Positions 1 to 27,625 of a DNA stretch of 64,000 nt are shown in pieces (positions within the stretch are counted from its first letter, which is position 1; every line of letters starts with the position of its first letter). The translations under genes and the position numbers were made by a program. Where the stretch lies: assembly GCA_934162535.1 (NCBI GenBank), contig CAKPJC010000006.1, positions 12,148 to 76,147 of the forward strand. The letters run 5' to 3'. The DNA is from an uncultured Clostridia bacterium. Lineage in GTDB: Bacteria; Bacillota; Clostridia; TANB77; CAG-508. The notes below the pieces were generated by a model, which ran no database searches, was not told the DNA's origin, and saw nothing but the letters and a program-made list of their open reading frames with translations.

Positions 1-398
1 AGTGTTAATTCTGCTTCTGGTATTTGAATCCAGTTATATGCTATTGTGTGTGCACCAAAGAATAATAGCATTGTTCCTACTGCACCTATTATTCCAAATG
101 TTGATAATGCTACTTTGAATATTCTATTTGCCCCTCTGTTGTCTCCTACTGCTAATCTTTCTGATACTAATTTTGATATTGCATTTGGTACTCCTATTGA
201 TGATATTGTTAATAATAGAGCATATATTTGGTAACCACTCACATATATAGCATTACCTGCATCTCCAAATCCATCTCTATTTGTTAAATACAATGTGTAA
301 ATTAGTCCTAATATTTTTATTAGTATTTGTGAAAACATTATTGTTATTACACCTTGCATGAATGTTTCTTTTTTTATTGTCTTTTTTAGTTCTGGCAT
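1..398 (-). CDS. MOP-superfamily flippase (SpoVB/MurJ-like polysaccharide biosynthesis protein), N-terminal part; gene runs off the window start
   Basis: My own minus-strand translation from the ATG at 396-398 (RBS GGAGG at 403-407) gives MPELKKTIKKETFMQGVITIMFSQILIKILGLIYTLYLTNRDGFGDAGNAIYVSGYQIYALLLTISSIGVPNAISKLVSERLA... This is a typical SpoVB/MurJ-type N-terminus. It is absent from the ORF track because the window edge truncates it. Confidence 0.55.
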   Translation of the reverse strand, partial: MPELKKTIKKETFMQGVITIMFSQILIKILGLIYTLYLTNRDGFGDAGNAIYVSGYQIYALLLTISSIGVPNAISKLVSERLAVGDNRGANRIFKVALSTFGIIGAVGTMLLFFGAHTIAYNWIQIPEAELT

Positions 399-491
399 GA
401 TTCCTCCTTTGTTTTATAATTTCATATTACTATTCTACTTCCATATTATAGATATAATTACAAAAAATATCAAGAAGTTTTGCTAAATTTA

Positions 492-520
492 TTGACAAAT
501 CCTCATTTTTGTAATAAAAT
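492..520 (+). promoter_or_regulatory. sigma-A-type promoter of rplM-rpsI
   Basis: TTGACA (492-497), 17-nt spacer, TAAAAT (515-520), about 110 nt upstream of the rplM ATG. Confidence 0.5.
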
Positions 521-628
521 TGTTTAGTATTATGTTAAAATATGATTTGAATATGAAACTTCTCCCCGGTAGTTTTAGATTTGAATTTCATATATAAATT
601 TAATTTAAAATAGGAGGATGACATTACC
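521..628 (+). promoter_or_regulatory. candidate structured 5' leader of rplM (possible L13-type ribosomal protein leader)
   Basis: An untranslated leader of about 100 nt lies between the promoter and the RBS. It contains the hairpin ATATGAAA...TTTCATAT around a C/G-rich loop (ctccccgg). Firmicutes are known to have an L13 autoregulatory leader. I cannot verify the fold here. Confidence 0.25.
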
Positions 629-1063
629 ATGAACAATGTTACATATAGTGTAAAAAAAGCTGAAATTGAAAGAAAATGGTATATAATCGATGCAGCAGAC
701 AAACCATTAGGTAGAGTTGCTACAGAAGCTGCAAGATTATTAAGAGGAAAACACAAAACAACTTTCACACCAAATCTTGATTTAGGTGATAATGTTATTA
801 TCATCAATTGTAAAGATGTTGTTTTAACAGGAAACAAAATGAATGACAAAGTTTACAGACATCATTCAGGTTATATTGGAGGAATGAAAGAAGTTCCTGC
901 AAATGTAATGCTTGAAAAAAATCCAGAAAAAGCTATGACATTAGCTGTTAAAGGTATGTTACCACACAATTCTTTAGGTAGAAAAATGGCAACAAAATTA
1001 AGAGTATTCGCTGGTAGCGAACATAATCTTCAAGCACAAAAACCAGAAATATGGAATTTTTAA
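629..1063 (+). CDS. rplM: 50S ribosomal protein L13
   Basis: 144 aa. WYIIDAADKPLGRVATEAARLLRGKHK... is the canonical L13 N-terminus. RBS aggagg lies upstream and rpsI follows. Confidence 0.97.
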   Translation: MNNVTYSVKKAEIERKWYIIDAADKPLGRVATEAARLLRGKHKTTFTPNLDLGDNVIIINCKDVVLTGNKMNDKVYRHHSGYIGGMKEVPANVMLEKNPEKAMTLAVKGMLPHNSLGRKMATKLRVFAGSEHNLQAQKPEIWNF

Positions 1064-1080
1064 TTAAGGAGGAACTATAA

Positions 1081-1482
1081 ATGGCTAAGTCAAATAAAAT
1101 AGTATATTTGGGTACAGGTAGAAGAAAAAGCTCAATTGCTAGAGTTAGATTATCTGAAGGAACAGGAAAAATAACTATAAATGGAAAAGATATTGAAGAA
1201 TTTTTCGATTTAGAAACATTAAAAGTTATAGTTAGACAACCATTAACATTAACAAATACATTATCAAAATATGATGTTATTTGTTCAGTACATGGTGGAG
1301 GTGTTTCTGGTCAAGCTGGAGCTATCAGACATGGTATAGCTAGAGCATTAAATGAGGCTAATACTGAATACAGACCAACTCTAAAATCTAACGGATTCTT
1401 AACAAGAGATCCACGTATGAAAGAAAGAAAAAAATACGGTCTTAAAAAAGCTAGAAAAGCACCACAATTCTCAAAGAGATAA
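1081..1482 (+). CDS. rpsI: 30S ribosomal protein S9
   Basis: 133 aa. It has [14 protein letters not shown] and a C-terminal ...[12 protein letters not shown], and sits in the conserved rplM-rpsI pair. Confidence 0.97.
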
Positions 1483-1493
1483 AAATATCAAAA

Positions 1494-1520
1494 CTCGGAA
1501 ATAAAATTTCCGAGTTTTTT
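1494..1520 (+). terminator. rho-independent terminator of rplM-rpsI
   Basis: CTCGGAA-ataaaat-TTCCGAG followed by TTTTTT. Confidence 0.8.
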
Positions 1521-1541
1521 GTTGTAAAATATTTCATTACT

Positions 1542-3254
1542 TTATAATTTTAACGGAAGCCTCCTCCGGCCACCTCCTCCACCGAATGAGCCACCTCCTC
1601 CGCCACCAGAAGAGAATCCTCCACCTCCTGATGAGTAGTTTCTTGCTGCACTTTCTGCTGACCTTGCTGCAGATATACCTTTATTACTACAATAATTAAT
1701 CCACATAACATCGCTATATGACATATAATGAGTTTGTTCAATTACTTCTGGATATAAATCTTCAAATTCTTTCGTAACCTCTTTAGCTATACCTAACAAT
1801 TGAGCATATATTAAATAATCTTCTAAAAGTACAACTTCTATGGCTAATTTTTCCTGTATCATTGTATACTCTAATAAGAAATTTTTTAAGTTCTTTATAT
1901 TTTCAGCCTGCATAGTTAATTCTTCAGCTGGCTCTAATTTTGTTTTAAATGTTTTTTTAGTTTCTGTTATCATTCCTTCTTTTTTTAATATTTCTTCTTG
2001 TTCATCTATTACTTTATCAAACCATTTTAATATCTTTGAATAGTTATCCTTACACCATTTTTTCAATTCATTTTTTTCTAATACTCCATCTTTACTAGCA
2101 ATATATATCATTTTATATAAGTCTCTTTCTAATGAATTTTGTATTTCACTTTCTACAATATTCAATTTTATTGCAAACTCTTCTTTAGTTCCAAGCAAAG
2201 TATTTTTTTCTATTTTTTTAATTTCAGCTTTTTCTTCTTTTATCCATTTTAATATTAAAGCTCCTAATAAATCTGTTTTATTTTTTATTATTCCATATGT
2301 ATATCCTATATAATATGCTCTAAATATATTACCATTTAATGGAATATCTCTATAATAACCTTTTTGTTTTGACAATTTCTTTTTAAATTGTCCTTTTTTT
2401 ACCTTCATTGAACTTCCTACTACTATAATTAATACAATCATTGGAAGAAATTCTTCTATTATATTTAATATATTTACTATCGTCTTTCCTATAGAAGTTT
2501 TTTTAGTTTTGGTATTTTCTTTATATTTAGTAGTTCCTTCTTCAGCCATAGTATAATAGTGATTAAAATTATAATTAATTTTATTTGAACAGTTAAATGT
2601 TCCTTCTGGAAATTTTGCAAGTATAGTCATATATTCACTTGTACTTAAACTTCCATTAGACTCCATATGTATTGTTCCATTGCTTACATAGCAAAGTCCT
2701 CCGTAATTTCCATATCCCCATACATCTATATTGTTTGGTATAGCTTTATCCGTATATATTTTTATTTTAGCTTTTCCTATTGAATTAGAAAATTCATATG
2801 GTATTAATGTCCAATAAATCATTTGTGAATCTTGTAATTCTGAAACAAAGTTTGATATTGTATATTTTGCAACATATACATGTGTTCCATAAGTACTTAT
2901 TCCCCAACATAGTTCCACTCCATTTGATATTTTATTTATTCCACATTTATAAGCTTTACTTGATAAACTCCCTGATGTGTTCCAGCTATCTAATGTTGAA
3001 TATTTTGTATTTCCTTCTAAAACTGTTAAATTATTTATTTTAGATTTACCTAAATTATAATATGGATGATAAACTTCAGTTCCTTTATCTGTCTTACATT
3101 TCCAAATTTCAGTAACAGTAGCATCTCCATTTTGATTTACATATATATCCATATTTATTTCACTTATGGTATTTGCATGTACAACATTGGTTATTCCTAA
3201 TCCCACTAATATTACTACTAGCATTATAAAAATTTTTAAATATTTATTTTTCAT
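1542..3254 (-). CDS. DUF2207-type membrane protein
   Basis: 570 aa with an N-terminal signal/TM, a central TM segment, and the characteristic Gly-rich C-terminal tail SSGGGGFSSGGGGGGSFGGGGG. Confidence 0.7.
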   Translation of the reverse strand: MKNKYLKIFIMLVVILVGLGITNVVHANTISEINMDIYVNQNGDATVTEIWKCKTDKGTEVYHPYYNLGKSKINNLTVLEGNTKYSTLDSWNTSGSLSSKAYKCGINKISNGVELCWGISTYGTHVYVAKYTISNFVSELQDSQMIYWTLIPYEFSNSIGKAKIKIYTDKAIPNNIDVWGYGNYGGLCYVSNGTIHMESNGSLSTSEYMTILAKFPEGTFNCSNKINYNFNHYYTMAEEGTTKYKENTKTKKTSIGKTIVNILNIIEEFLPMIVLIIVVGSSMKVKKGQFKKKLSKQKGYYRDIPLNGNIFRAYYIGYTYGIIKNKTDLLGALILKWIKEEKAEIKKIEKNTLLGTKEEFAIKLNIVESEIQNSLERDLYKMIYIASKDGVLEKNELKKWCKDNYSKILKWFDKVIDEQEEILKKEGMITETKKTFKTKLEPAEELTMQAENIKNLKNFLLEYTMIQEKLAIEVVLLEDYLIYAQLLGIAKEVTKEFEDLYPEVIEQTHYMSYSDVMWINYCSNKGISAARSAESAARNYSSGGGGFSSGGGGGGSFGGGGGRRRLPLKL

Positions 3255-3351
3255 TTTTTACCCTTTTTATTTTTTTATTAAATTTTATTATATATTTTAT
3301 TGTTTCTAACAGTTTAGTAGACAAGTGCTTCACAACACAAGCCCCTATACA

Positions 3352-3384
<33 letters not shown>

Positions 3385-3404
3385 CTCGTAATAACATTCA
3401 CTTT

Positions 3405-4283
3405 TTAATCAAATAAGCTAAAATATATCTTTGGGTATGGTAGCCTGTAATATTTTAGCATTTCATTGAACCCTGCCCAGTTGTAGCTTTTTCTATTACT
3501 TCTTCTATTTAATACTTTAAATAGATATTCTATTGTTCTATGTCTGAAAGTTCCTATCATTGTGCTATTATGCGATATGCCATAGTATCGATAATGTCCT
3601 AAAAGCTTTATTCTTAGCTTTTCCATTAACTCTCTAACTTTTATATCTCTATTTTCATATAGCCATACTTTCATTGCTTTTACTTTCTGTTTAAATTTCT
3701 TCTTACTTGTTTTCACTTTGATACAAGGCTTTCCTTGTCTTGTCTTACTGCAATAGAATGTAAATCCTAGAAAATCAAATGTTTCTGGTTTGCCTTCTCC
3801 TAGTTGTTTTCTGCTTTGCTCTGCATATTTCCCAAATTTAATAATTTTACTTTTGCTACTTTCTAACTCTAAACCAAATTTACTCATTCTTTCTTTTAAT
3901 GCTTCATAATATGCTTCTGCTTCTTTTTGATATTGAAAACCTGCAATAAAATCATCTGCATATACTACTAAAAATGTATTCCCTTCTGCTCTCTTCTCTA
4001 TTATTTCTTTATACCATAATACTAATACAAAGTGCATATAGATATTTGCTAATACCGGACTTATGATATTTCCTTGTGCTGAGCCTTCTTCTGTTGCTAC
4101 ATATTGCCCTTTGTCCATTATTCCTGCTTTTAAATATTTCTTGATTAGTCCAATAATGTTAGGGTCTTTAATGTTATATTCTATGAACTTTATCATCCAG
4201 TCGTGGTCTATATGGTCGAAGAACCCCTTTATATCTGCATCTACAATGTAGTTTATTCTTGTGTTTGATATACTTTTATGCAC
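3405..4283 (-). pseudogene. group II intron reverse transcriptase/maturase, N-terminally truncated (RT blocks 0-1 missing)
   Basis: Begins at VDADIKGFFDHIDH (RT block 2), then SAQGNIISPVLANIYM, VVYADDF (active site) and the maturase X motif LLGHYRYYG. The track start is a GTG. No upstream RT sequence exists. Confidence 0.85.
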
Positions 4284-4387
4284 ATATTTTATTGCTTTAT
4301 GACAGCATTATTTTTGGCATAATTAGCTTTGTATTTATCAATACAACAAATCGTTATTTAAATAACTTGTAAGTTGTCGCTGAGTTG

Positions 4388-4894
4388 TTATTTATTATAT
4401 TCAACACACTTTTTTTCTAATAGTTTAAAATTGCAACATCTTACTTTTATATTTTCTGGTAATTTTCCATTACTATATAATTGATATAATTTGAAAGATT
4501 TATTTTTTACTTGCTTATAGTTCGCATTTAACCAATCTAATTGTTCTCTTAATAATTTTTGATATTTTAATTCTGCAATAGTTAAAGTTTCTTTGTTTAA
4601 ATCTACTAAAGAGTAATTATTTTCACTTACTGGTATCATATTATTAAAATTAACAGCTCCTAATTCGCCATCTTTAATTTTGAAAAAGTCTAAAGTATTT
4701 TTCATATTTTTGTGTTTAAGCTTTGGACTTGATAATGGTGCAAAATACTTACAAGTATCTATTTGAAATAATATTCCTATAAAAGGTCTTAATTCTTTCT
4801 CATTTTTATTATAAGCCACCTTATTATCAAATTTTCTTAAATAATCACAATAATCTGAATTAACTCTAACAATTTTTAAATTTATAATCATCAC
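4388..4894 (-). CDS. toxN: type III toxin-antitoxin system toxin, ToxN/AbiQ family endoribonuclease
   Basis: 168 aa. The blocks YLRKFDNKV, FIGILFQIDTCKYFAPLSSPKLKH, NNMIPV, YQKLLREQLDWLNANYKQVKNKS and CNFKLLEKKC align by eye with ToxN/AbiQ. It is preceded by RNA repeats and a terminator. Confidence 0.85.
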   Translation of the reverse strand: MMIINLKIVRVNSDYCDYLRKFDNKVAYNKNEKELRPFIGILFQIDTCKYFAPLSSPKLKHKNMKNTLDFFKIKDGELGAVNFNNMIPVSENNYSLVDLNKETLTIAELKYQKLLREQLDWLNANYKQVKNKSFKLYQLYSNGKLPENIKVRCCNFKLLEKKCVEYNK

Positions 4895-4950
4895 AAATTA
4901 CCTCCTTAGCATTTCAATTATATATTAAAATTTATAAAAATGCAATAATG

Positions 4951-4979
4951 CAAAAGGATTAGAGTTTGACCTCTAATCC
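4951..4979 (-). terminator. internal (attenuating) terminator between the antitoxin repeats and toxN
   Basis: Minus strand: GGATTAGAG-GTCAAA-CTCTAATCC-TTTT. Its position matches the terminator that sets the RNA:toxin ratio in known type III TA loci. Confidence 0.7.
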
Positions 4980-4984
4980 CCCTT

Positions 4985-5096
4985 TTTTAAGTTCCAATTT
5001 AATGGCTGGAAACACCGCTTTTTCAAATTCCAATTTATGGCTGGATTCACCGCTTTTTTAAGTTCCAATTTAATGGCTGGATTCACCAACTTTTTT
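4985..5096 (-). ncRNA. ToxI/antiQ-like antitoxin RNA: 3.2 head-to-tail repeats of 35-37 nt
   Basis: Minus-strand units are AAAAAAGTTGGTGAATCCAGCCATTAAATTGGAACTT (5096-5060), AAAAAAGCGGTGAATCCAGCCATAAATTGGAATTTG (5059-5024) and AAAAAGCGGTGTTTCCAGCCATTAAATTGGAACTT (5023-4989), plus a partial AAAAAAG. The units are contiguous with no spacers. Confidence 0.75.
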
Positions 5097-5156
5097 GCTA
5101 TTTCTAGCAATAATATTATATGCAATTTATATAAATTTATTGCCTTCTGTATTTTA

Positions 5157-5185
5157 AATATACCATATTTTTTAGCAATAATCAA
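5157..5185 (-). promoter_or_regulatory. promoter of the toxIN module
   Basis: Minus strand: TTGATT (5185-5180), 17 nt, TATATT (5162-5157), about 55 nt upstream of the first repeat. Confidence 0.5.
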
Positions 5186-5202
5186 TATTTTTCGAAAAAT
5201 TT

Positions 5203-5715
5203 TCAGTTTACATATTTTCTATGTGAATTTTTTACATTATTTTGATTAACCATTGCATATTCCATTGTAGTATCTATTTTTAAATGCCCTAATAATTTTT
5301 GTACTTGTTCTATAGGCATACCTTTATCAATAGCCATAGTAGCCATTGTTCTTCTAAATTTATGTGGGTGTACTTTGTTTATATTTGCTTTTCTTCCTAA
5401 ATTTCTAATAGTAATTTCAATTCCTGATATTCCTAATCTATTATAAGGTTTTATAAGAGATACAAATAATGCTTCATTATCATCTGTTCTAGTTTCCAAA
5501 TATTTTTCTATATACATTTTGCTCTTTGCACTAAAATAAACTTCTCTTTCACTGTTTCCTTTACCCAAAGCAATACAGCTTCTTTCTTGAAAATTCATAT
5601 CGGATAAATTTAATCTTGTAAGTTCTCCTACTCGAATACCTGTTGAAATTAATAGTTCTAATATTGCTAAATCTCTTACATTTGAGCAAGTATCTCTCAA
5701 TTTTTCTAGATTTTC
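5203..5715 (-). pseudogene. tyrosine recombinase (phage-integrase family) catalytic-domain fragment lacking the N-terminal core-binding domain
   Basis: Carries TGIRVGEL (Arg), HPHKFRRT (His-x-x-Arg) and LGHLKIDTTMEYA (His...Tyr). The first 24 or so codons of the tracked ORF (5716-5787, TTG start) are actually group II intron 5' sequence. Confidence 0.7.
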
Positions 5716-5785
5716 AGTGGTTTGGTTAGACCTTAGCCAGACGGGATTTCCACCCGTTAGATTACTTACCCTTTGCTGGGCGCAC
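5716..5785 (-). mobile_element. group II intron 5' end stub (start of domain I)
   Basis: The minus strand from 5785 reads GTGCGCCCAGCAAAGGGTAAGTAATCTAACGGGTGGAAATCCCGTCTGGCTAAGG... It has the GUGCG 5' consensus (compare GTGCGCCCAGATAGGGTG of Ll.LtrB) and is a G+C-rich patch in an AT-rich context. The inner boundary is approximate. Confidence 0.55.
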
Positions 5786-5820
5786 AATTACTATTTATTT
5801 ATTATAACTTTATATTTTTC

Positions 5821-5850
5821 TTGACTTTTTAACTTTAAATAGCTTATAAT
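5821..5850 (+). promoter_or_regulatory. orphan sigma-A-type promoter
   Basis: TTGACT (5821-5826), 18 nt, TATAAT (5845-5850). No plus-strand gene lies downstream. Confidence 0.45.
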
Positions 5851-5856
5851 AAATAT

Positions 5857-5947
5857 AGGAAATGACAAATCCACAAACGTGGTTTTGCCAAAATAGATAT
5901 AAAAACTCACACCTAACTCGCCAAAGTTACAGATGTGAGCTTTTTTT
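5857..5947 (+). ncRNA. candidate small RNA (about 90 nt, promoter to terminator)
   Basis: Lies between the orphan promoter and the hairpin CTCACA..TAAC/GTTA..TGTGAG plus TTTTTTT (5906-5947). It has an internal hairpin CCAC-aaac-GTGG. Only a 31-codon ORF with a poorly spaced RBS reads through the terminator. Confidence 0.3.
5901..5947. terminator. bidirectional terminator (polysaccharide deacetylase gene on minus; candidate sRNA on plus)
   Basis: A hairpin flanked by AAAAA on the left and TTTTTTT on the right. Confidence 0.6.
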
Positions 5948-6028
5948 ATTTATGTAGTTGCTTGTCAACCCAGTTCTTATACAGACCTGCTGTCAAGACA
6001 ACGCTTAATATTAAATAATAGTTCTTCA

Positions 6029-6859
6029 TTAATTATATCTAACTGCTCTATATAATATCTTTATAATCATCTTAGATGGTGAATCACTTAATGGATAGCA
6101 TCTATGTAATCCACTCAATTCAAGACTTTTGCTTTTATTTATTCTATTATCTGTTAAATTTTCGATATATCCATTTTGTTCAATATTTTTTCTCTGTTCG
6201 TCAGTATATAAGCCATATGGATATGTAAATATTTTTAATTTTTGTATACCAAGATTTTCTTCTATTACTCTATATGATTCATTTACATTTTCCACTGCTT
6301 CTGATACATCAAGTGATGTAAATTCTGGATGATTTGTGCTATGTGATGCAATTGTCATAAGCCCTGAATCTTGCATTTCTCGTGCTTCTTCCCAATTTAT
6401 TATACCATCTTTCCCCATATTATCTGTTATAATAAACATTGTCATAGGTATATTATATTTCTGAGCTATAGGATAAGCATTTTCATATACTCCTGAATAT
6501 CCATCATCAAAAGTTATTATACATGATTTTTTATATAATTCTTTTTTTCCTTCACTATATTCTTTTAAATCTTCATAACTAATAAAATGGTATCCAAAAT
6601 TTTGAAGTCCCTTTATTTGATTTTCAAATGTTTCCTTTGTTGTTTGCATATAGTCATATTCTATTTCAGATGATTCTTTTACTATATTATGATATACAAA
6701 TATAGGTATTTTTAAGTTTTTATCATCAATCTTGTATTGATTATTTATTGTTGCTCTATCATATATTATAACAGATAATACGCCAACAATTATTATTCCT
6801 ATTACTATTAGCACTATATTGCGTACAATGTGTTTCTTTTTTAATTTGTTCTCTTCCAT
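6029..6859 (-). CDS. polysaccharide deacetylase (NodB homology domain) with N-terminal membrane anchor
   Basis: 276 aa with an N-terminal TM, ITFDDGY, and HSTNHPEF-type motifs. Confidence 0.85.
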   Translation of the reverse strand: MEENKLKKKHIVRNIVLIVIGIIIVGVLSVIIYDRATINNQYKIDDKNLKIPIFVYHNIVKESSEIEYDYMQTTKETFENQIKGLQNFGYHFISYEDLKEYSEGKKELYKKSCIITFDDGYSGVYENAYPIAQKYNIPMTMFIITDNMGKDGIINWEEAREMQDSGLMTIASHSTNHPEFTSLDVSEAVENVNESYRVIEENLGIQKLKIFTYPYGLYTDEQRKNIEQNGYIENLTDNRINKSKSLELSGLHRCYPLSDSPSKMIIKILYRAVRYN

Positions 6860-6871
6860 CTTTCATACTCC

Positions 6872-9800
6872 TTAATTCAATTCTTTTAAAATGATTTCTT
6901 TATCTAAATATGTAGAATAAATATATACTTTGTCTACTTTTCTATTTAGTGCTTGTTCCAAAGTTTGCCTATATAGTTTTAATTGTATTTGATATTTATC
7001 AATTAGCATTTGTTCATCTTTGTTTTCAACATAGTCTGTTTTATAATCTACTAATACTAATTCATCATTTTTATTTATATAATACAAGTCTATTATTCCT
7101 TGTACTAGTAATTTTTCTTCTAGTTCTTTTTCATATATTTCTTTTGCTGGTACATTTATAAAAAATGGTTTTTCTCTTTCAATTTTTTTTGCTTCAATAA
7201 GTTCTTTCCAAATTCCCGATTTTGTAAAGTTATATATTTTCACAATGTTTATCGCATCATATTCCTTATCATTTATTATGTTTTTTTCTTTTAGCTCTAA
7301 AATGTATTTTCTAATATCATCTATTGTGTATTCTTTTTTAGATATTTTTATTCTTTGTAAACAAAGATGTATTAGTGTACCTTTTTCAGCATTTGTGATT
7401 TTTTCTTCATTGCTTACCTGTAAGAAATTTGGCTTTGGTATCTCTACAATTGTTTGTTCTTGCTTGTTTGATTTCATTTGTTTTATTTCTGATACAGATG
7501 TTTTATTTGGAATTGTAGTTGCTATTTCATTTTTATATTTATATTCAAGTAGATTAACTATTTCCTGATATTTTTTCTGGTCTAATTCCTTTTGCTGTAG
7601 CTTTTCTTTTAGTTCTTTTGAATTTGGCATTTCTGTTTTTTCTTCATTTTTATTTTTTATGATTTGAGATTTTTCATATGTTTTTATTTCTGCAAGTTGT
7701 TCCATTTCTTCTGTAGCACTCATATATACAAGTCTTATCCAATCTAAGTATGATATATATTTTTTTAGTATTATATAATTTACCTTTCCATATTTATCTA
7801 TTGCTTCTCTTAGCTCTTTTTCTTTCTCTTTTCTGCTATATCCTGTTATTATTAGTTTTTCTTTTGCTCTTGTTAATGCAACATATAGTATTCTCATTTC
7901 TTCAGAAATTGTTTCTATTTTTATTTTTTCTTTCATTGCTTGTTTTGATAATGTATCATATTCTATTTGTTTATTGTAATCAATATATTTTACTCCAATT
8001 CCTATTTCAGGATGTATCAGAATTTTATTGTTTAAATCTTGCATATTGAATTGTTTTCCTGTTCCTGATATAAATACAACTGGAAATTCAAGCCCTTTGC
8101 TTTTGTGTATACTCATTATTCTTATTACATTTTCATTTTCTCCAATGATTTTTGCTGAGTCCATGTCTTTACTACTGGTTTTTACTTTTTCAATATAATT
8201 TATGAAGTTGAATAGCCCTTTGAAGCTTATTGATTCATATTGTTTCGCTCTTTCAAATAACATTTTTAGGTTTGCTTGTCTTAATTCTCCATTTGTCATT
8301 AAACCAACATAGTCATAATATCCTGTGTCATTGTATATTTTCCATATTAATTCGTCTAAACTTAAATATTCTTGTTCTTTTCTCCACATTTCTAGTTTAT
8401 TTAAAAATACTTCTATTTTTTCTCTTAGTGTTTTATTTACATCTTTTTTTGCTTTTAGTAGTGTATTGTAAAATCCATCATATTTGTCACTTAGTCGTAT
8501 TTGTACTAAGTCATTATCTGTAAATTCTCCAATATTTGACCTCATTACAGCTACAAGTGGTATTTCTTGCAATGGATTGTCTATTATTTTTAATAAACTC
8601 ATTATTGTTTGTATTTCTATGCTTTCCAAATATTCAGATGATGAGTCACTAAATACAGGCATATCTAATTTTAATATTTCTTTTTCAAATACTGGTGCAG
8701 GTTCTTTTGTTGATCTTAGCAATATTACAATGTCTTTGTATTTTATGTCTCTTTTTTCTTGTTTTTTTGCATCATATATTTGGAATTTGTTGTTTATAAG
8801 TTCTTTTATTCTTTGTGCTACAAATCTTGCTTCTAATTCGATGTCTTCTATTCTTTCTGTTTCTTCTATTTCATCATCTTCTTCTGTTTCTTCTGCATAT
8901 TCTATTGTTTCTTTTTCTTCTTCTCCAATATTTAGTATGTCTATTTCTGTTTTTAGGTTTTCATTTGTATTCTCATAGTTTGCTCCTAAATTCAAGTATT
9001 CTTCTTTGGTATAATCTAGTTCTCCTAGTTTTTCTGTCATTATGTTTGTGAATATTTCGTTTGAAAAGTCTAATACTTCTTTTCTACTTCTAAAGTTTTT
9101 GAATAGTTGTATTTTTAGATCATCATTTGGTTGTAGGTCTTCTTTTAGTTTGTATTTTTTGTATTTCCCTAAAAATAAGTCTGGTCTTGCTTGCCTAAAT
9201 CTGTATATGCTTTGTTTTACGTCTCCTACCATAAACATATTGTTACCTCTTGATACAGCCGTTAATATATATTCTTGTACTAGGTTACTGTCTTGGTATT
9301 CATCTATTGCGATTTCTTCAAATTTTTGTTGATATTTTTTTGCAATTTCTGTTGGCTCATTATTTTCTGTTAATAATATTTTTAGTGCAAAATGCTCTAC
9401 ATCATGAAAGTCTACTATGTTTTTTTCTTTTTTTCTTTTTGAAAATTTTTCTTCAAATTCTAATATGATATTTCCTAGTTTTTTTAGTATTTCATACATT
9501 TCATTTATGTCTTCATTTGCTTCTTTTGAGTTTACTATTAGTATTTTGTCTGTTATCTTTTTGTATTCTGATTTTACTCCATCTCTTATTTGTTTTGCTA
9601 TTTCTTTTTCTTCTATTACTATTCTTTTGTTTGCAGTCCATGTTTTAAAATTTATGTTTCTTACTATTTCAAAGGCTTTGTCCCATTTGTCTAAATTGCA
9701 TTTTAACATTTCTATTTGTTCTATATCATCATTTATTATTTGATAGTATTTTGTTAGTTCTTCATATTTGGCTAATTGTTGTTTTTCTTTTGATAGTTTT

Positions 9801-10480
9801 ATTATTGAGTCTTCTAGTATTTCTTCTACTTGTTTTAATAATAGTTTTCCCCACATTGTTTCTGAAAAGTCTTGTTCTATCTTTTCTTCAAGATTGAACA
9901 TTTCTATTTTTTCTTTTAGCCATTTTTCTGGAAATGGATTACTTTGAATGTATGTATATATTTTTAGTATAAGTTCTTTTAGTGGTGTGTCATCTTTGTA
10001 GCTTGTATATGTTGTTATTAGTTGCTGGAAGTCTTTGTCCTCTGCTTCATATTTTTCTTCAAATATTTCTTCTATTACATCTTGTTTTAGTATTTCTATT
10101 TCTGTGTTGTCTCCTATTCTGAAGTTTGGCGATATGTCTATTTCAAAAAAGTTGTTTTTTACTACGTCTAAACAAAATGAGTCTATTGTACATATGCTTG
10201 ATTTGTTTAATAGTGTTATTTGCTTTTGTAGCTTTTCGTTTTCTGGATTTTCTTCCATTTTTTTGTATATCGCATTTAGTACTCTTTCTCTCATTTCTGA
10301 TGCAGATGCGTTTGTGAATGTTACTACTAACAACTTGTCTATGTCGATGTTTTCGTTTATTATTTTGTTTATTATTCTTTCTACTAATACTGCTGTTTTT
10401 CCACTTCCTGCTGCCGCAGATACTAGTATGTTTTTACCTTTTTCATATATGGCTTGTTTTTGTTCTTTTGTCCACTCCAT
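6872..10480 (-). CDS. addA: ATP-dependent helicase/nuclease subunit A (AddA)
   Basis: 1202 aa. UvrD-type N-terminus WTKEQKQAI...VSAAAGSGKT, DEYQDSN, and a C-terminal PD-(D/E)xK nuclease block GIIDLYY...LVDYKTD. Confidence 0.9.
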   Translation of the reverse strand: MEWTKEQKQAIYEKGKNILVSAAAGSGKTAVLVERIINKIINENIDIDKLLVVTFTNASASEMRERVLNAIYKKMEENPENEKLQKQITLLNKSSICTIDSFCLDVVKNNFFEIDISPNFRIGDNTEIEILKQDVIEEIFEEKYEAEDKDFQQLITTYTSYKDDTPLKELILKIYTYIQSNPFPEKWLKEKIEMFNLEEKIEQDFSETMWGKLLLKQVEEILEDSIIKLSKEKQQLAKYEELTKYYQIINDDIEQIEMLKCNLDKWDKAFEIVRNINFKTWTANKRIVIEEKEIAKQIRDGVKSEYKKITDKILIVNSKEANEDINEMYEILKKLGNIILEFEEKFSKRKKEKNIVDFHDVEHFALKILLTENNEPTEIAKKYQQKFEEIAIDEYQDSNLVQEYILTAVSRGNNMFMVGDVKQSIYRFRQARPDLFLGKYKKYKLKEDLQPNDDLKIQLFKNFRSRKEVLDFSNEIFTNIMTEKLGELDYTKEEYLNLGANYENTNENLKTEIDILNIGEEEKETIEYAEETEEDDEIEETERIEDIELEARFVAQRIKELINNKFQIYDAKKQEKRDIKYKDIVILLRSTKEPAPVFEKEILKLDMPVFSDSSSEYLESIEIQTIMSLLKIIDNPLQEIPLVAVMRSNIGEFTDNDLVQIRLSDKYDGFYNTLLKAKKDVNKTLREKIEVFLNKLEMWRKEQEYLSLDELIWKIYNDTGYYDYVGLMTNGELRQANLKMLFERAKQYESISFKGLFNFINYIEKVKTSSKDMDSAKIIGENENVIRIMSIHKSKGLEFPVVFISGTGKQFNMQDLNNKILIHPEIGIGVKYIDYNKQIEYDTLSKQAMKEKIKIETISEEMRILYVALTRAKEKLIITGYSRKEKEKELREAIDKYGKVNYIILKKYISYLDWIRLVYMSATEEMEQLAEIKTYEKSQIIKNKNEEKTEMPNSKELKEKLQQKELDQKKYQEIVNLLEYKYKNEIATTIPNKTSVSEIKQMKSNKQEQTIVEIPKPNFLQVSNEEKITNAEKGTLIHLCLQRIKISKKEYTIDDIRKYILELKEKNIINDKEYDAINIVKIYNFTKSGIWKELIEAKKIEREKPFFINVPAKEIYEKELEEKLLVQGIIDLYYINKNDELVLVDYKTDYVENKDEQMLIDKYQIQLKLYRQTLEQALNRKVDKVYIYSTYLDKEIILKELN

Positions 10481-10542
10481 GTTATTCTCCTAAATTTTTA
10501 TTTCATATCTGTTATACCATATTTTTTTGTTTTTTACAACAT

Positions 10543-10571
10543 TTGCATTTTTTTCTAGCTTATGGTATAAT
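10543..10571 (+). promoter_or_regulatory. promoter of the 111-aa plus-strand ORF
   Basis: TTGCAT (10543-10548), 17 nt, TATAAT (10566-10571) with an upstream TG. Confidence 0.5.
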
Positions 10572-10611
10572 ATGTAATGTGTTAATTATAACATAAAAAG
10601 AGGTGTAATAT

Positions 10612-10947
10612 ATGACATTATTAGCAATAATATATGTATTAGTATTTATAATTTTTGCTTTATGTGCATATGCAGTAATGCAAATCAAATTAGCTGGAAT
10701 ACAAGTAAAGGACTTTTGGTCATTTATTGAAGCTAACCAAATTCTAGACAAATTATATGAATTTTCTAAACGTTATAAAACTTTAACTCCCCAACAGCAA
10801 GTTGTATACTTGTTAGAGGCAGAAAAAGTATTTAACGCTTTTGATAAAATTCCTAATATTATTTGGGAAGATGAATTCAAAAAATATGATGAAGTTCTAA
10901 AGAAATATAAAGAAATAAAAATAGATAGATGGGTATCAAATTCTTAA
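10612..10947 (+). CDS. hypothetical small membrane protein
   Basis: 111 aa with an N-terminal TM helix, RBS gaggtg, and its own promoter. It is one of the few credible plus-strand genes. Confidence 0.5.
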   Translation: MTLLAIIYVLVFIIFALCAYAVMQIKLAGIQVKDFWSFIEANQILDKLYEFSKRYKTLTPQQQVVYLLEAEKVFNAFDKIPNIIWEDEFKKYDEVLKKYKEIKIDRWVSNS

Positions 10948-13385
10948 TACCCATCTATTATTATTTCTCCATTTTTCATAGTAATTGTAGAAGTCTTGTC
11001 CGGTACTATTGTTCCATCAAGTATTTCTTCTGCAATTCTATTTTCTATTTTATTTTGTATTGTTCTTCGTAAAGGTCTTGCACCCAATGTATGGTCTGCA
11101 CCTTGTTTTGTTATATAATCTATAACACTTTCATCAATTGAAATATAATATCTTTTTTCTTTTAGTCTTTCTTCTATCTGTTTTATCATTTTTTTACCAA
11201 TTGTTTTTAACTCTTGGTCTGTCAGCTTTTGGAATACTATTATTTCATCTATTCTATTTATAAATTCCGGTCTAAATTCTCTTTTTAATTCTTGTATAAC
11301 TTCCCTTTTTATTTCTTGATTTTCCTTTTTTTCGTTTTCTTCTTTATTTTCTCCAAATCCAAGCATTTTCTTTTCAGTTATATTTCTCGCTCCTATATTT
11401 GATGTCATAATTATTATTGTGTTTTTAAAATCGATTCTCCTTCCTTGTGAGTCTGTTAATTGTCCATCTTCGAGTATCTGTAATAATATATTCATTACGT
11501 CTGTATGTGCTTTTTCTATCTCGTCAAATAATATTACTGAATATGGCTTTCTTTTTATCTTTTCTGTTAGCTGTCCTCCATTATCATATCCAACATATCC
11601 TGGTGGTGAACCTATTAATTTTGACACTGAATGTGCTTCCATATATTCTGACATATCAAGTCTTATCATTGATTTTTCATCTTCAAATAATATTTGCGTT
11701 AGTGCTTTTGACAATTCTGTTTTTCCTACTCCTGTCGGTCCTAAAAATAAGAATGAACCTATTGGTCTATTTGGGTCTTGAAGTCCAAGTCTTCCCCTTT
11801 TTATTGCTTTTGCAATTGCATTAACTGCTTCTTCTTGTCCAACAATTCTTTCATGTAATTTTTCTTCTAAATGCCTTAGTTTCTCATTATCATTTTCTGT
11901 TAGTTTTTGTATAGGTATTCCTGTCCATTTTGAGATTATTTCTGCTATGTTTTCTTCTCCAATTTCTACTATGTCTGTTGTTTTTTTCTTTCTCCAATCA
12001 TTTAAGATTTTTTCCAGTTTGTTTTTTGCTTCTTTTTCTCTATCTCTTATTTGTCCTGCTTTTTCAAATTCTTGATTAAATATTGCTTCTTCTTTTTCTT
12101 TTAACATTATATCTATTTTTTCTTGTAATATTTTTATTTCTTCTGGTTCTTTATATATTTTCATTCTTATTTGTGATGATGCCTCATCTATTAAGTCTAT
12201 TGCTTTGTCTGGTAAAAATCTATCTGTTATATATCTTGTTGATAATTCCACTGCTGATTTTATTGCTTCGTCTGTTATTTTAACATTGTGATGTGCTTCA
12301 TATTTGTCTCTAATTCCTTTTAATATTTGTACAGCTTGTTTTTTTGTTGGTTCATTTATTCTTACTACACTAAATCTTCTTTCTAGTGCTTGGTCTTTTT
12401 CTATATATTTTCTGTATTCATCTGTTGTAGTTGCTCCTATTACTTGTATCTCCCCTCTTGCTAATAATGGTTTTAGTATATTTCCAGCATCTATTGCCCC
12501 TTCTGCTGCACCTGCTCCAACTATTGTATGTACCTCATCTATGAATAATATTATTGTTCCTACTTTTTTTACTTCTCCTAATGCTTTTTTTAGTCTTTCT
12601 TCAAAATCTCCCCTGTATTTTGCACCTGCAACCATCCCTGATATATCTACACTTACTATTCTTTTTTCTTTTAATATTTCTGGTACATCTCCCACTACTA
12701 TTTTTTCTGCTAGTCCTTCTATTATTGCTGTTTTTCCTACTCCTGGCTCTCCTATTAAACATGGATTGTTTTTTGTTCTCCTTGATAGTATTTGTATTAT
12801 TCTCTCTATTTCTTTTTCTCTTTCTACAACATTGTCAAATTTTCCATTTTCTGCTTGTGTTGTTATGTCTTCACCAAATTGATTTAGTGTAGGTGTTAAT
12901 GCAGTACTTCCAATTTCTTTTGGTTTTTTTATATATAGTTCTTGATCTAGCTCTTCTTCATTTATTACATTTGATATTTCACTATATATTTTCGATATTT
13001 CTACATTTGATTCTGTTATGATTCTTGTTGCAATACTATCTGTTTCTTTTAATATTGCAAGTAACAGGTGCTCTGTTCCTATAAAGTTATATCCTATTTT
13101 TTTGGCTTCTATGAATGCATTTTCAAGTATTTTTTTGGCTCTTGGCGTAAAGCCTAATGATTGTTTTATTTCTTTTCCTCTTCCTAGCATTTCTTCTATT
13201 TTTTTTACGACTTTTTCTTCTGTTATTCCTTTATTCATTAGTACTTTAGATGCTATTCCTTCTCCTTCTTTTATTAATCCATATAATATGTGCTCTGTTC
13301 CTATATAATTATGTCCTAATTCTAATGATATGTCATTTGCTATCTCTATTGATTTTTTTGCTCTGTTTGTGAATTTATATATCAT
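10944..13385 (-). CDS. clpC: ATP-dependent Clp protease ATP-binding subunit ClpC
   Basis: 813 aa with two Clp_N repeats, Walker A motifs GEPGVGKT and GPTGVGKT, and a UVR-like linker (FEKAGQIRDREKE). Confidence 0.93.
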   Translation of the reverse strand: MIYKFTNRAKKSIEIANDISLELGHNYIGTEHILYGLIKEGEGIASKVLMNKGITEEKVVKKIEEMLGRGKEIKQSLGFTPRAKKILENAFIEAKKIGYNFIGTEHLLLAILKETDSIATRIITESNVEISKIYSEISNVINEEELDQELYIKKPKEIGSTALTPTLNQFGEDITTQAENGKFDNVVEREKEIERIIQILSRRTKNNPCLIGEPGVGKTAIIEGLAEKIVVGDVPEILKEKRIVSVDISGMVAGAKYRGDFEERLKKALGEVKKVGTIILFIDEVHTIVGAGAAEGAIDAGNILKPLLARGEIQVIGATTTDEYRKYIEKDQALERRFSVVRINEPTKKQAVQILKGIRDKYEAHHNVKITDEAIKSAVELSTRYITDRFLPDKAIDLIDEASSQIRMKIYKEPEEIKILQEKIDIMLKEKEEAIFNQEFEKAGQIRDREKEAKNKLEKILNDWRKKKTTDIVEIGEENIAEIISKWTGIPIQKLTENDNEKLRHLEEKLHERIVGQEEAVNAIAKAIKRGRLGLQDPNRPIGSFLFLGPTGVGKTELSKALTQILFEDEKSMIRLDMSEYMEAHSVSKLIGSPPGYVGYDNGGQLTEKIKRKPYSVILFDEIEKAHTDVMNILLQILEDGQLTDSQGRRIDFKNTIIIMTSNIGARNITEKKMLGFGENKEENEKKENQEIKREVIQELKREFRPEFINRIDEIIVFQKLTDQELKTIGKKMIKQIEERLKEKRYYISIDESVIDYITKQGADHTLGARPLRRTIQNKIENRIAEEILDGTIVPDKTSTITMKNGEIIIDGY

Positions 13386-26494: not shown

Positions 26495-27625
26495 TTAATC
26501 CATAAATTCTGTACGCCAATATTCTGGTATATTTTCATAATTATTTAATCCTGTTGCATTGTAATAGCATCCATATCCATCAGGTTCACCAATATAATCA
26601 TTTGTACTTCCATTTGGCACTCTTTTCCATAGTTTTATTGGCTCTCCTGTTAATCCTGTGCATTTGAGAAATGTACCTCTAAAAATAGTTACATTTAGGC
26701 AATTTGCAAATAAATTTTCTGGGATTCTTGTTAATGATGTACAGTATGCAAATGTTGTATAAAAAGTTGTTACATTTGGACAGTTTGCAAATAAATCTTC
26801 TGGAATACTTGTTAGTGATTCGCATCCATAAAATCCATCTGAAAAAACTGTTATTTTTTCAAAACTCTTTTCTGTTGGACTTGCTATTTTTCTTAATTTT
26901 GTACAACCTCTTAGGCATACTCTTTCTAACCCTGTTTCTCCCCATTGGATTATTTCAAGAATGTTGTCATTTCCATTGCAAATAATCCTTGTACATTTTC
27001 CTGTTATTGTGACTTTATAATCTTTGTTTTTTTCCGAGTATGTATGTGTTGGTGGATAAGCTAATGCAATTTTGCTTTTCGCACCATCATTTTGTATTAC
27101 ACTAGCATATTTTTTTTCTCCTGTATTCTTGTTTTCTGCTGTTGTTACCTTACCATCTCCCCAGTCAATAATTCTTCCTTCTTCAGTTTCCAATAATGGC
27201 AACCTCACTTCTCCAGTATCTCCTGAATTAACCAGCATTATTAATGCACTTTTGTCTACTTCTTCTCCATATGGTATCTCTCTTGTTCCTATTATTATTA
27301 TTTCTCTTTTTGTGTCTATTTCATTATCAAATACTTTATCTTCTTTTTTTAAATTTTCTAACATTTCTTCTTTTGATACTAGTGCATCATTTTTTCCTTC
27401 TAGTTCATTTTTCGTTTTTATATTTTCATTTTTTATCTTCCATAATTGCACTAATTCTTCTACATCTCCAGCTCTTGACTCGAGTTTTGCTTCATTTGCT
27501 TTTCCTATTATTCCATTGTCTCCTTTTAGCATTTGTATGCTTATTCCTGCTAATATCATTAATACTACGATTGTTACTACTAATGCTATTAGTGTTATTG
27601 CTTTTGAGCTTTTTATTCTGTTCAT
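26495..27625 (-). CDS. L1: surface-protein paralogue with pilin-like N-terminus and 27-aa LRR-type (BspA/LRR_5-like) repeats
   Basis: The start is taken at the second ATG, because GGAGG of atGGAGGaacaaaagATG gives ideal spacing. The track start is 27640. N-terminus MNRIKSSKA-ITLIALVVTIVVLMILAGISI. Repeats follow the pattern LFANCPNVTxFxxTFxxCTSLTxIPxx. The conserved C-terminus is GEPIKLWKRVPNGSTN.YIGEPDGYGCYYNATGLNNYENIPEYWR. Confidence 0.75.
   Translation of the reverse strand: MNRIKSSKAITLIALVVTIVVLMILAGISIQMLKGDNGIIGKANEAKLESRAGDVEELVQLWKIKNENIKTKNELEGKNDALVSKEEMLENLKKEDKVFDNEIDTKREIIIIGTREIPYGEEVDKSALIMLVNSGDTGEVRLPLLETEEGRIIDWGDGKVTTAENKNTGEKKYASVIQNDGAKSKIALAYPPTHTYSEKNKDYKVTITGKCTRIICNGNDNILEIIQWGETGLERVCLRGCTKLRKIASPTEKSFEKITVFSDGFYGCESLTSIPEDLFANCPNVTTFYTTFAYCTSLTRIPENLFANCLNVTIFRGTFLKCTGLTGEPIKLWKRVPNGSTNDYIGEPDGYGCYYNATGLNNYENIPEYWRTEFMD

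Follow-up and report, generated by a model that had tools for sequence, protein, structure and literature searches.

The question raised by this locus is whether a small open reading frame (ORF) and the short tandem repeats that precede it, both on the minus strand of a 64,000-nucleotide (nt) stretch of DNA from an uncultured Clostridia bacterium (GenBank assembly GCA_934162535.1, contig CAKPJC010000006.1; the whole stretch is referred to below as the window), together make up a toxin-antitoxin (TA) system of type III, what kind of antitoxin RNA the repeats would then encode, and how such a system came to lie where it does. A preliminary description had proposed a complete ToxIN/AbiQ-like abortive-infection module. 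The analysis presented here indicates that window positions 5203-4365 (minus strand) very probably constitute a self-contained ToxIN-family type III TA cassette that would work as proposed, with a protein toxin, ToxN, and an array of toxI repeats as its antitoxin. The evidence bears directly on the protein family membership, the layout, the structured and selected repeat RNA, and the purifying selection on both parts. The elements of the cassette, from its upstream end, are as follows.

5157-5185, minus strand: candidate toxIN promoter, with the -35 box TTGATT at 5185-5180, a 17-nt spacer and the TG-extended -10 box TATATT at 5162-5157
5097-5156, minus strand: putative transcribed leader with a possible stem-loop at ~5144-5106, based on fold and clade conservation
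4983-5096, minus strand: toxI array, with an A-run at 5096-5091 and units at 5090-5054, 5053-5019 and 5018-4983
4952-4983, minus strand: inter-gene hairpin with the core stem at 4979-4956 (GGAUUAGAG/CUCUAAUCC), based on fold and terminator-like in a scan
4901-4907, minus strand: ribosome-binding site AAGGAGG, read from the sequence, 9 nt before the toxN ATG
4388-4891, minus strand: toxN, 167 amino acids (aa), stop codon included, based on PF13958 and structures; an in-frame GTG at 4894 adds one residue
4367-4381, minus strand: cassette 3' edge motif AGCGACAACTTACAA, where homology with other loci ends

The 168-aa ToxN/AbiQ ORF of the preliminary description corresponds to the GTG-start form of toxN (4388..4894, minus strand). 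Public assemblies start the same gene at the adjacent ATG (4891), which yields 167 aa, on at least 22 contigs, and an exact-sequence look-up of the GTG-start form returned no match, the ATG form being the one on record. The profile search against the ToxN/AbiQ family that had been called for produced a full-length match to the Pfam family ToxN_toxin (PF13958; E = 8.5e-49, profile positions 1-159 of 159), the sole Pfam family at E ≤ 1, along with a match to AbiQ in PADLOC (2e-37); no NCBIfam model matches ToxN, so that this collection is uninformative for toxN. In a phmmer search of the PDB, full-length matches were obtained to the ToxN proteins of Bacillus thuringiensis (4ATO, 3e-24), Pectobacterium atrosepticum (2XD0, 1e-21) and Escherichia coli (7D8O, 7e-20) and to AbiQ (4GLK, 3e-10), and the same four structures were the only significant Foldseek matches (TM-score 0.73-0.80) to an AlphaFold2 model of the protein (mean predicted local distance difference test, pLDDT, 86.7; predicted TM-score, pTM, 0.81), CptN (4RMO) being marginal (E = 0.1, TM-score 0.32). 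The active site of E. coli ToxN consists of Lys33, Thr52, Ser53 and Lys55 (PMC8860590), and R35, S54, S55 and K57 of the window protein align with these residues, in the conserved A-P-L-S-S-P-K strand. Replacement of Lys by Arg at the Lys33 position occurs in E. coli ToxN clusters 4 and 5 (PMC8860590), and Ser at the Thr52 position is the state found in AbiQ (PMC5086642).

Relatives of the locus were compared using one genome per species, for a total of 71 loci (given L numbers where they have to be told apart) with toxin identity ranging from 99% down to 32%. Across 14 comparisons with relatives, the ratio of nonsynonymous to synonymous substitution rates (dN/dS) of toxN is 0.04-0.16, and therefore toxN is under strong purifying selection. 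By sequence and predicted fold, the ORF is a full-length endoribonuclease of the ToxN/AbiQ family; RNase activity, antitoxicity and phage defense of the locus are those that we infer by analogy with the characterized members.

Upstream of toxN, on the same strand, 3.2 contiguous repeats of 35-37 nt had been noted, in agreement with Tandem Repeats Finder, where a single array is called at 4982-5096 (score 165), with a period of 36, 3.2 copies and 87% matches. The 25-nt core of the unit has no other copy in the 64-kb window, where 0 chance matches are expected. Placed in register, the units are 37, 35 and 36 nt long, with three complete units bounded by four A-runs, and the fractional "0.2" copy is the fourth A-run, because every unit ends in a run of A5-6. 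These runs are presumed, from the behavior of the family, to be the ToxN cleavage sites. The array adjoins the hairpin directly. The three units are position-specific variants (unit 1 GTTGGTGAATCC, unit 2 GCGGTGAATCC...ATTTGAAAAA, unit 3 GCGGTGTTTCC), with their order held across species at toxN synonymous divergence (dS) of ~0.3-0.5 (arrays of L011-L034) and homogenized in L035, L036 and L038, which suggests that ordered variant units reflect selection for non-identical units or slow concerted evolution.

With positions counted from the start of the A-run, the window unit has the pairs G9-C21, G10-C20 and U11-G19 in stem 1 and U15-A32, C16-G31, C17-G30 and A18-U29 in stem 2, and because the two stems are interleaved, the predicted fold is an H-type pseudoknot. 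In the crystal structure of E. coli ToxI (ToxI_Ec; PMC8860590), stem 1 (S1) comprises A1-U16, G2-C15, G3-C14 and U4-A13, stem 2 (S2) comprises U9-A25, G10-C24, C11-G23 and U12.U22, the conserved G5 and A6 open loop 1, and A19 and A20 make A-minor contacts; each of these features has a counterpart at the corresponding position of the window unit. Units of the Ruminococcus/Lachnospiraceae type retain the U.U pair.

Covariation was assessed in 76 distinct units from metagenome-assembled genomes (MAGs), aligned by MAFFT columns in the 5' half and by a structure-neutral right-boundary anchor in the 3' half; a plain MAFFT alignment of the units was rejected, given that it placed arbitrary gaps in the linker and, in the units of 34-35 nt, misaligned the 3' arm of the stem. 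The seven core pairs of the pseudoknot are canonical in 95.7% of instances, compared to 13-63% after a shift of the 3' partner by 1-3 positions, and none of 1000 column shuffles reached the observed fraction. At the first position of stem 1, 67 units have G-C and 9 have A-U, with 0 mismatches and with both states found within single arrays (L070, L072), whereas the first position of stem 2 is U-A in 54 units, C-G in 16 and A-U in 2, with one mismatch; U11-G19 is replaced by U-A or C-G in relatives. The array is, furthermore, the best-conserved non-coding segment, exceeding in conservation both the toxN coding DNA and the neighboring spacer, and is 89-100% identical to the arrays of relatives in which the synonymous sites of toxN are saturated (dS 0.8-1.3). 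Taken together, the covariation, the correspondence with the crystal structure and the conservation of the array identify it as a selected, structured ToxI-type RNA, with an H-type pseudoknot predicted for each unit.

The comparison of the repeat with known ToxI RNAs that had been proposed was successful in one respect and not in the other. A search of Rfam with the array gave no match at E ≤ 10, including to the ToxI model RF02519; in a control, this model detected only the B. thuringiensis-type repeats and missed the E. coli-type, Lactococcus and Clostridium botulinum arrays, and because it thus also misses a genuine E. coli-type array, the silence of Rfam is no evidence against ToxI. By contrast, the arm order and the pseudoknot are common to the window unit and the reference arrays, which were taken from plasmid sequences of E. 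coli (Pectobacterium-type unit AGGTGATTTGCTACCTTTAAGTGCAGCTAGAAATTC), B. thuringiensis (34 nt), C. botulinum (38 nt) and Lactococcus lactis pCV56A (36 nt), the arm order being the same in all four reference units. The suggestion that the repeat might be a new ToxI family member needs refinement, in that it forms no new ToxI class: the pseudoknot is that of the E. coli/Pectobacterium and B. thuringiensis ToxI, and the sequence is closest to that of pCV56A.

Among the named systems, the best toxin match by both sequence and structure is ToxIN of B. thuringiensis pAW63 (4ATO; RF02519; E = 3e-24, TM-score 0.76), which is likewise Gram-positive and has ~3 repeats with A5-6 bounds and the order GGUG, stem-2 arm, ACC, linker, stem-2 arm, and whose cleavage site, A/AAAA (PMC5086642), fits the A-runs of the window. 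It differs in having a 34-nt unit rather than one of 35-37 nt, a toxin that is ~35% identical and carries a C-terminal extension, and a plasmid location, and the Rfam model built on its repeats misses the window array. The closest antitoxin is that of the toxIN locus on L. lactis CV56 plasmid pCV56A (listed in Blower 2012), a 36-nt unit, AAAAGCGGTGAATCTCCACCATCAAGTGAGAATCAA, in 3.1 copies, of which the first 14 nt, AAAAGCGGTGAATC, are also those of the window unit, next to a toxin with 41% identity; here, the differences are in stem 2 (CUC:GAG versus UCCA:UGGA in the window), the plasmid location, and the absence of a long leader, the promoter being 11 nt ahead of the array.

The ToxIN system of P. 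atrosepticum pECA1039 and E. coli (2XDB/2XD0, 7D8O) has a 36-nt unit onto which the pseudoknot maps 1:1 (S1 GGU:ACC, G5-A6, S2, A19-A20) and the same order of promoter, array, terminator and toxin as in the window, but with 4.6-5.5 near-identical repeats instead of three non-identical ones, cleavage at GAAA/U where the window units have a pure A-run followed by G, a U.U pair (E. coli) rather than A-U as the fourth pair of S2, Trp57 (E. coli) in place of Lys59, and ~32-37% toxin identity. AbiQ/antiQ of L. lactis pSRQ900 (4GLK) belongs to the same toxin family (PADLOC AbiQ 2e-37, TM-score 0.73), has Ser at the Thr52 position, cleaves A/AAA and has a proven abortive-infection phenotype (PMC5086642), although among the homologues with solved structures AbiQ is the furthest from the window toxin (26% identity, E = 3e-10). 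Finally, the toxIN locus of C. botulinum phage D-1873/p1, from a clostridial host, combines a 47% identical toxin with a 38-nt array of 3.2 copies and a hairpin next to it, and differs in its phage/plasmid location and in its longer, divergent units, one of the three being strongly unlike the other two.

The sequences around the array and toxN are consistent with this layout. The promoter TTGATT-17-TATATT that had been proposed at 5185-5157 is present, with 9 of 12 consensus matches plus the upstream TG, and its position is conserved in the clade; the consensus match does not by itself exceed chance, so that the site was accepted as a candidate because of its positional conservation and not on the match alone. 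About 25 members of the clade share a promoter ~60 nt before the array, the promoter segment is 76-100% conserved, and distant relatives have a near-consensus TTGACA-17-TATAAT ~50 nt before the array. The leader that would follow folds at -10.0 kcal/mol (z = -2.7) into a 14-pair AT-rich stem-loop with a sequence conserved across the clade; its RNAalifold support is weak (-2.55 kcal/mol; three pairs show compensation, each of them in one sequence only), and formation of the stem-loop appears plausible. An invariant TTGCATATAAT lies inside the leader (5125-5115, minus strand), 17 nt before the array. The leaders of more distant relatives contain one or two GC-richer hairpins.

Between the array and the toxin gene, the expected hairpin was found at 4983-4952 (-19.6 kcal/mol, z = -5.25; 0 of 200 shuffles fold as stably), ending 60 nt before the toxN ATG and terminator-like by scan, but the T-run that had been described with it is short, with UUUU followed by GCAUUAUUGCAUUUUU, an interrupted U-rich stretch. 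Nearly every related locus has a hairpin past the array, with compensatory drift of the stem (GATTAGAG/CTCTAATC, AACTAGAG/CTCTAGTT, GGCTGCG/CGCAGCC). By analogy with the family, the hairpin is presumed to be a leaky Rho-independent terminator that sets the toxI:toxN ratio. The ribosome-binding site AAGGAGG stands before the toxin gene at 4907-4901, as described previously. Between the hairpin and this site, a further TTGCAT-17-TATAAT (4945-4917, minus strand), unlisted by the scan and with 3 of 6 matches in the -35 hexamer, could serve as a weak promoter close to toxN, from which transcription would avoid the terminator.

The arrangement as a whole is that of a known family. Blower et al. (2012) recognized toxIN loci by a ToxN homologue, a terminator before it and tandem repeats before the terminator (PMC3401426), and the window sequence contains all of these, a ToxN homologue, a preceding hairpin, at which termination is predicted, and tandem repeats. 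The type III TA layout inferred previously thus agrees with the published definition and recurs in ~50 of the 66 related loci examined, with arrays of 34-36-nt repeats, usually in 3.2 copies, with ~40-140 nt between their end and the toxin gene; several of the loci without an array had too little upstream DNA. Of the 67 members in the toxIN survey, 57 were on chromosomes and many came from Clostridia, and the means were 38.1 nt for the repeat (31-62), 2.8 copies (1.9-5.6) and 168 aa for the toxin (PMC3401426); the window locus, at 36 nt, 3.2 copies and 167-168 aa, lies at the center of the toxIN family ranges. Assignment to CptIN or TenpIN is not indicated, given that ToxN_toxin is the sole Pfam match at E ≤ 1 and that the CptN fold match is marginal; the cptI and tenpI repeats typically span 40-57 nt (PMC3401426), and the 36-nt window repeat falls below this range. 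With all the defining features that can be tested in silico present, the locus is therefore a member of the known toxIN family; the repeat is not a new ToxI class, and the locus is a typical chromosomal toxIN cassette of an uncultured gut Clostridium.

Homologues of ToxN number 2,564 at E < 1e-5, with relatives in 71 species-level genomes, and include 216 plasmid records as well as phages of Clostridium, Clostridioides and Fusobacterium; the closest annotated toxins in curated collections are those of C. botulinum phage D-1873/plasmid p1 (47% identity) and Clostridioides phage pCD1602_4 (42%). At L044, L057, L059 and L078, an internally deleted or truncated toxN lies beside an apparently intact array, and L049, L054 and L077-L080 gave partial matches; at the former four, the cassette is decaying and the antitoxin has outlasted the toxin. 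In L048, another toxI-like unit, with a hairpin of its own, is found ~380 nt upstream of toxN, ahead of the promoter and array that belong to the gene; it could represent an orphan antitoxin or what is left of a second cassette.

If the locus operates like its characterized relatives, a single promoter would drive transcription of the leader, the three 35-37-nt toxI repeats, the hairpin with its weak U-tract, and toxN, with most transcripts ending at the hairpin, so that antitoxin RNA is produced in excess, and with read-through yielding ToxN, as in the family (PMC3401426, PMC5086642). ToxN would be a metal-independent endoribonuclease (R35, S54, S55, K57) that cuts the precursor in the single-stranded A-runs, leaving a 2',3'-cyclic phosphate, and the released units would fold as H-type pseudoknots, the two A-rich tails of which would fill the active sites of neighboring ToxN molecules, each unit bridging two of them. 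The complex is most likely a closed triangular 3:3 assembly, as in three ToxIN systems, in which case the three units of each transcript would supply exactly one complex. Should transcription of the locus stop, for instance because a phage shuts off the host or the element is lost, depletion of the unstable RNA would leave free ToxN to cleave A-rich mRNAs and arrest the cell; release by phage-induced host shutoff has been shown for E. coli ToxIN (summarized in PMC10853763). Cleavage in the A-runs, the 3:3 assembly, the leakiness of the terminator, the trigger and the biological role are thus carried over from the family.

Several points weigh against such a functional ToxIN cassette, or at least against parts of it. 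Transcription, processing, toxicity and neutralization in this organism are predictions from sequence. Promoter-like sites in the region number 15, compared to 12.6 +/- 3.8 in shuffled sequences, such that the match at 5185-5157 is not above chance in itself, and the TTGCATATAAT in the leader, with TATAAT at 5120-5115, could be a second candidate -10 element. The U-tract past the hairpin consists of four U only, and terminator function is assumed. The units sampled for covariation are phylogenetically structured, and their 3' halves were anchored by rule and not taken from MAFFT. The cleavage positions differ within the family (AA/AU, A/AAAA, A/AAA; PMC5086642). Moreover, ToxIN_Bt showed no anti-phage activity in its native host, so a defense role is not universal (PMC5086642).

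The ToxIN locus is ordinary in its parts; its surroundings are not. Nucleotide comparison shows the cassette to be sharply bounded, from ~5203, just before the -35 box, to ~4365, 23 nt past the toxN stop, and this unit of ~840 bp recurs at 81-95% nucleotide identity in many unrelated neighborhoods. Directly upstream of it, L011 and L018 have a full-length recombinase of 331-339 aa, which in L011 is of the Xer type (247 bits versus NF040815), and the cassette likewise lies directly 3' of a tyrosine recombinase in L020 and L021. The window carries a fragment of such a gene (Pfam Phage_integrase, profile positions 5-170 of 172), with its stop codon abutting the 5' edge of the cassette. This context, that is, a chimeric 194-aa "integrase" and the location of the whole block inside a disrupted group II intron, was not part of the preliminary description and involves the following features.

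5717-5785, minus strand: group II intron 5' stub, intron nt 1-69, starting with GUGCG, based on identity to intact introns
5203-5716, minus strand: truncated Xer-type tyrosine recombinase, C-terminal 171 codons, based on Pfam Phage_integrase
3310-4304, minus strand: group II intron 3' part, intron nt 889 to the end, based on RF00029, RVT_1 and identity

The called 194-aa "integrase" ORF (5203-5787) is a chimera, with its last 171 codons derived from the recombinase and its first 24 from the intron 5' end; stop codons lie upstream of 5787, and the GUGCG of the intron is at 5785. Compared with intact 1.88-kb introns from metagenomes (L090, L099, L101, L108), window positions 5785-5717 correspond to intron nt 1-69 at 99-100% identity, and positions 4304 to ~3310 correspond to intron nt 889 to the end at 86-89% identity. 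The 3' part includes a 5'-truncated reverse transcriptase (RT)/maturase ORF at 4283-3405 (Pfam RVT_1 from profile position 64, with GIIM; TIGR04416 from position 117 of 353) and domains V/VI at 3386-3312 (Rfam RF00029, 55.9 bits). Intron nt 70-888 have therefore been replaced, and the replacement consists of 1,412 nt, comprising half of the recombinase, ToxIN and ~60 nt of other sequence, all on the intron strand. The chimera is found at 99.3-100% identity on ten contigs from different human-gut samples and is thus fixed; neither an intact intron nor an empty site was found in the same species at this position, between the deacetylase and DUF2207 genes, with 10 of 10 contigs carrying the chimera.

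Both the intron-recombinase neighborhood and the fragmentation of the intron have parallels. On the L108 contig, an intact intron lies ~130 nt upstream of a full-length recombinase gene, with no ToxIN seen on that contig, and the neighborhood therefore exists elsewhere. A separate locus has a 3'-truncated stub of intron nt 1-129 (L088, L093, L096, L097, L100, L102, L106 and others), which the conserved flanks show to be the same locus in many samples, and intron fragmentation is therefore frequent in these genomes. The possibility that the breakpoint of the 69-nt stub is common to other loci was considered and rejected, given that the others have nt 1-129 and the breakpoint in the window is its own. 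Microhomology is not evident at the left junction; at the right one it amounts to a few bases at the most, and none of it is convincing.

Illegitimate recombination at the DNA level is the default reading of the replacement. Entry of the recombinase-ToxIN block into the intron as RNA, by way of two RT template switches during retrohoming, is improbable in our estimate. In that event, the RT would have copied the intron from nt 1883 to 889, switched to a read-through recombinase-toxIN transcript, copied it up to the middle of the recombinase, returned to the intron RNA at nt 69 and finished there; the order intron (1-69), int'-toxI-toxN, intron (889-end), on one strand and with both junctions inside the intron, is that expected from a single, twice-switched complementary DNA. 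No paper linking group II introns with ToxN was found in the collection of papers searched.

The downstream edge of the cassette allows two interpretations, with the motif AGCGACAACTTACAA being one that could be the toxN terminator or an Xer-type recombination half-site. In L022 (~3512-3535), the edge motif extends into a perfect palindrome, AGCGACAAC-TTACAA-GTTGTCGCT, of which it forms the left half, and in L011 and L020 the inverse arm is located 81-87 nt further on, ~85 nt past the toxN stop. Occurrences of the motif GCGACAACTTAC, compared at both cassette ends as a half-site, are sparse, and no tRNA or att target for the recombinase was found in window positions 1-12000.

On the other side of the block, upstream of the intron (regions 5945-5900 and 5855-5796, minus strand), a terminator-like hairpin follows a polysaccharide deacetylase gene, and a 12-bp perfect AT-only inverted repeat ends ~10 nt before the intron 5' end. 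Intron copies inserted elsewhere likewise conserve the ~28 nt that precede the intron 5' end, and these may be an intron target motif. Elsewhere in the window, there are four tandem-repeat arrays with an 81-nt period and a related consensus, AAATGTTACATTTGGACAATTTGCAAATAAT... (26681-26853, 28154-28419, 32681-32934 and 35641-35957), which presumably are repeats within large proteins.

Abortive infection by this locus would be expected from what is known of the family, and it is with regard to this role that an alternative has to be weighed most carefully. The same machine might have been selected for addiction, stabilizing the cargo of an Xer-type recombinase element through post-segregational release of ToxN, which would penalize loss of the carrying DNA, and might now persist selfishly beside a dead recombinase and a dead intron. 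The position of the cassette 3' of a recombinase in four loci and the recurrence of the unit in unrelated neighborhoods speak for such a role, as do the frequent homologues on plasmids and their presence on phages, the promotion of plasmid retention by ToxIN_Pa, ToxIN_Bt and CptIN (PMC5086642), and the housekeeping character of the window flanks (AddA, ClpB, rpsI/rplM), which therefore form no defense island. However, strong phage protection is conferred by ToxIN_Pa, AbiQ and E. coli ToxIN (PMC5086642, PMC10853763), and the recombinase in the window is truncated, so that no mobile element is left to stabilize, yet the cassette is intact, under purifying selection and 99-100% identical on 10 metagenome contigs. 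Addiction is thus possible but, on balance, doubtful as the selected role, and the addiction and phage-defense roles are not mutually exclusive.

It is very unlikely that the cassette is a decaying, non-functional remnant, carried into the dead intron together with the broken recombinase and no longer expressed or active. The cassette does sit between two pseudogenized elements, and the truncated or deleted toxN genes beside intact arrays at the four loci mentioned above attest that the family decays. In the window, however, the ORF is intact, with all the active-site equivalents present and a dN/dS of 0.04-0.13 in comparison with close relatives, the promoter, array, hairpin and ribosome-binding site are intact and conserved, and because the cassette has its own promoter, the state of the flanks is irrelevant to its expression. 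Scarcely credible is the notion that the repeats are a DNA-level operator or iteron feature, or encode a small repetitive protein, rather than an RNA antitoxin, for although two 70-aa ORFs span the array (4973..5185, minus strand, and 5037..5249, plus strand, rightly called spurious beforehand) and no Rfam family matches it, a silence without weight, units of 37, 35 and 36 nt (34-35 nt in relatives) destroy any conserved frame, so that these ORFs cannot be coding, the compensatory changes over two interleaved helices are an RNA signature, and the units align with crystallographically defined ToxI RNAs.

The locus thus represents a two-part system of which the antitoxin is missed both by ORF callers, which place spurious 70-aa ORFs over it, and by the current Rfam model. 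Its relatives add a large clade to toxIN, mostly from uncultured Clostridia and Bacilli of the animal and human gut, and the natural variation within this clade provides independent support for the crystallographic ToxI pseudoknot. The cassette, ~840 bp long, acts as a portable unit and frequently has an Xer-type recombinase next to it. The understanding of type III systems is unchanged by these findings, the locus being ordinary for the field and its genomic setting unusual. The embedding of the cassette in an intron is a curiosity, possibly of relevance to the movement of small defense cassettes, and the template-switch reading, if true, would make it a natural case of capture of a defense/TA cassette by a group II intron.

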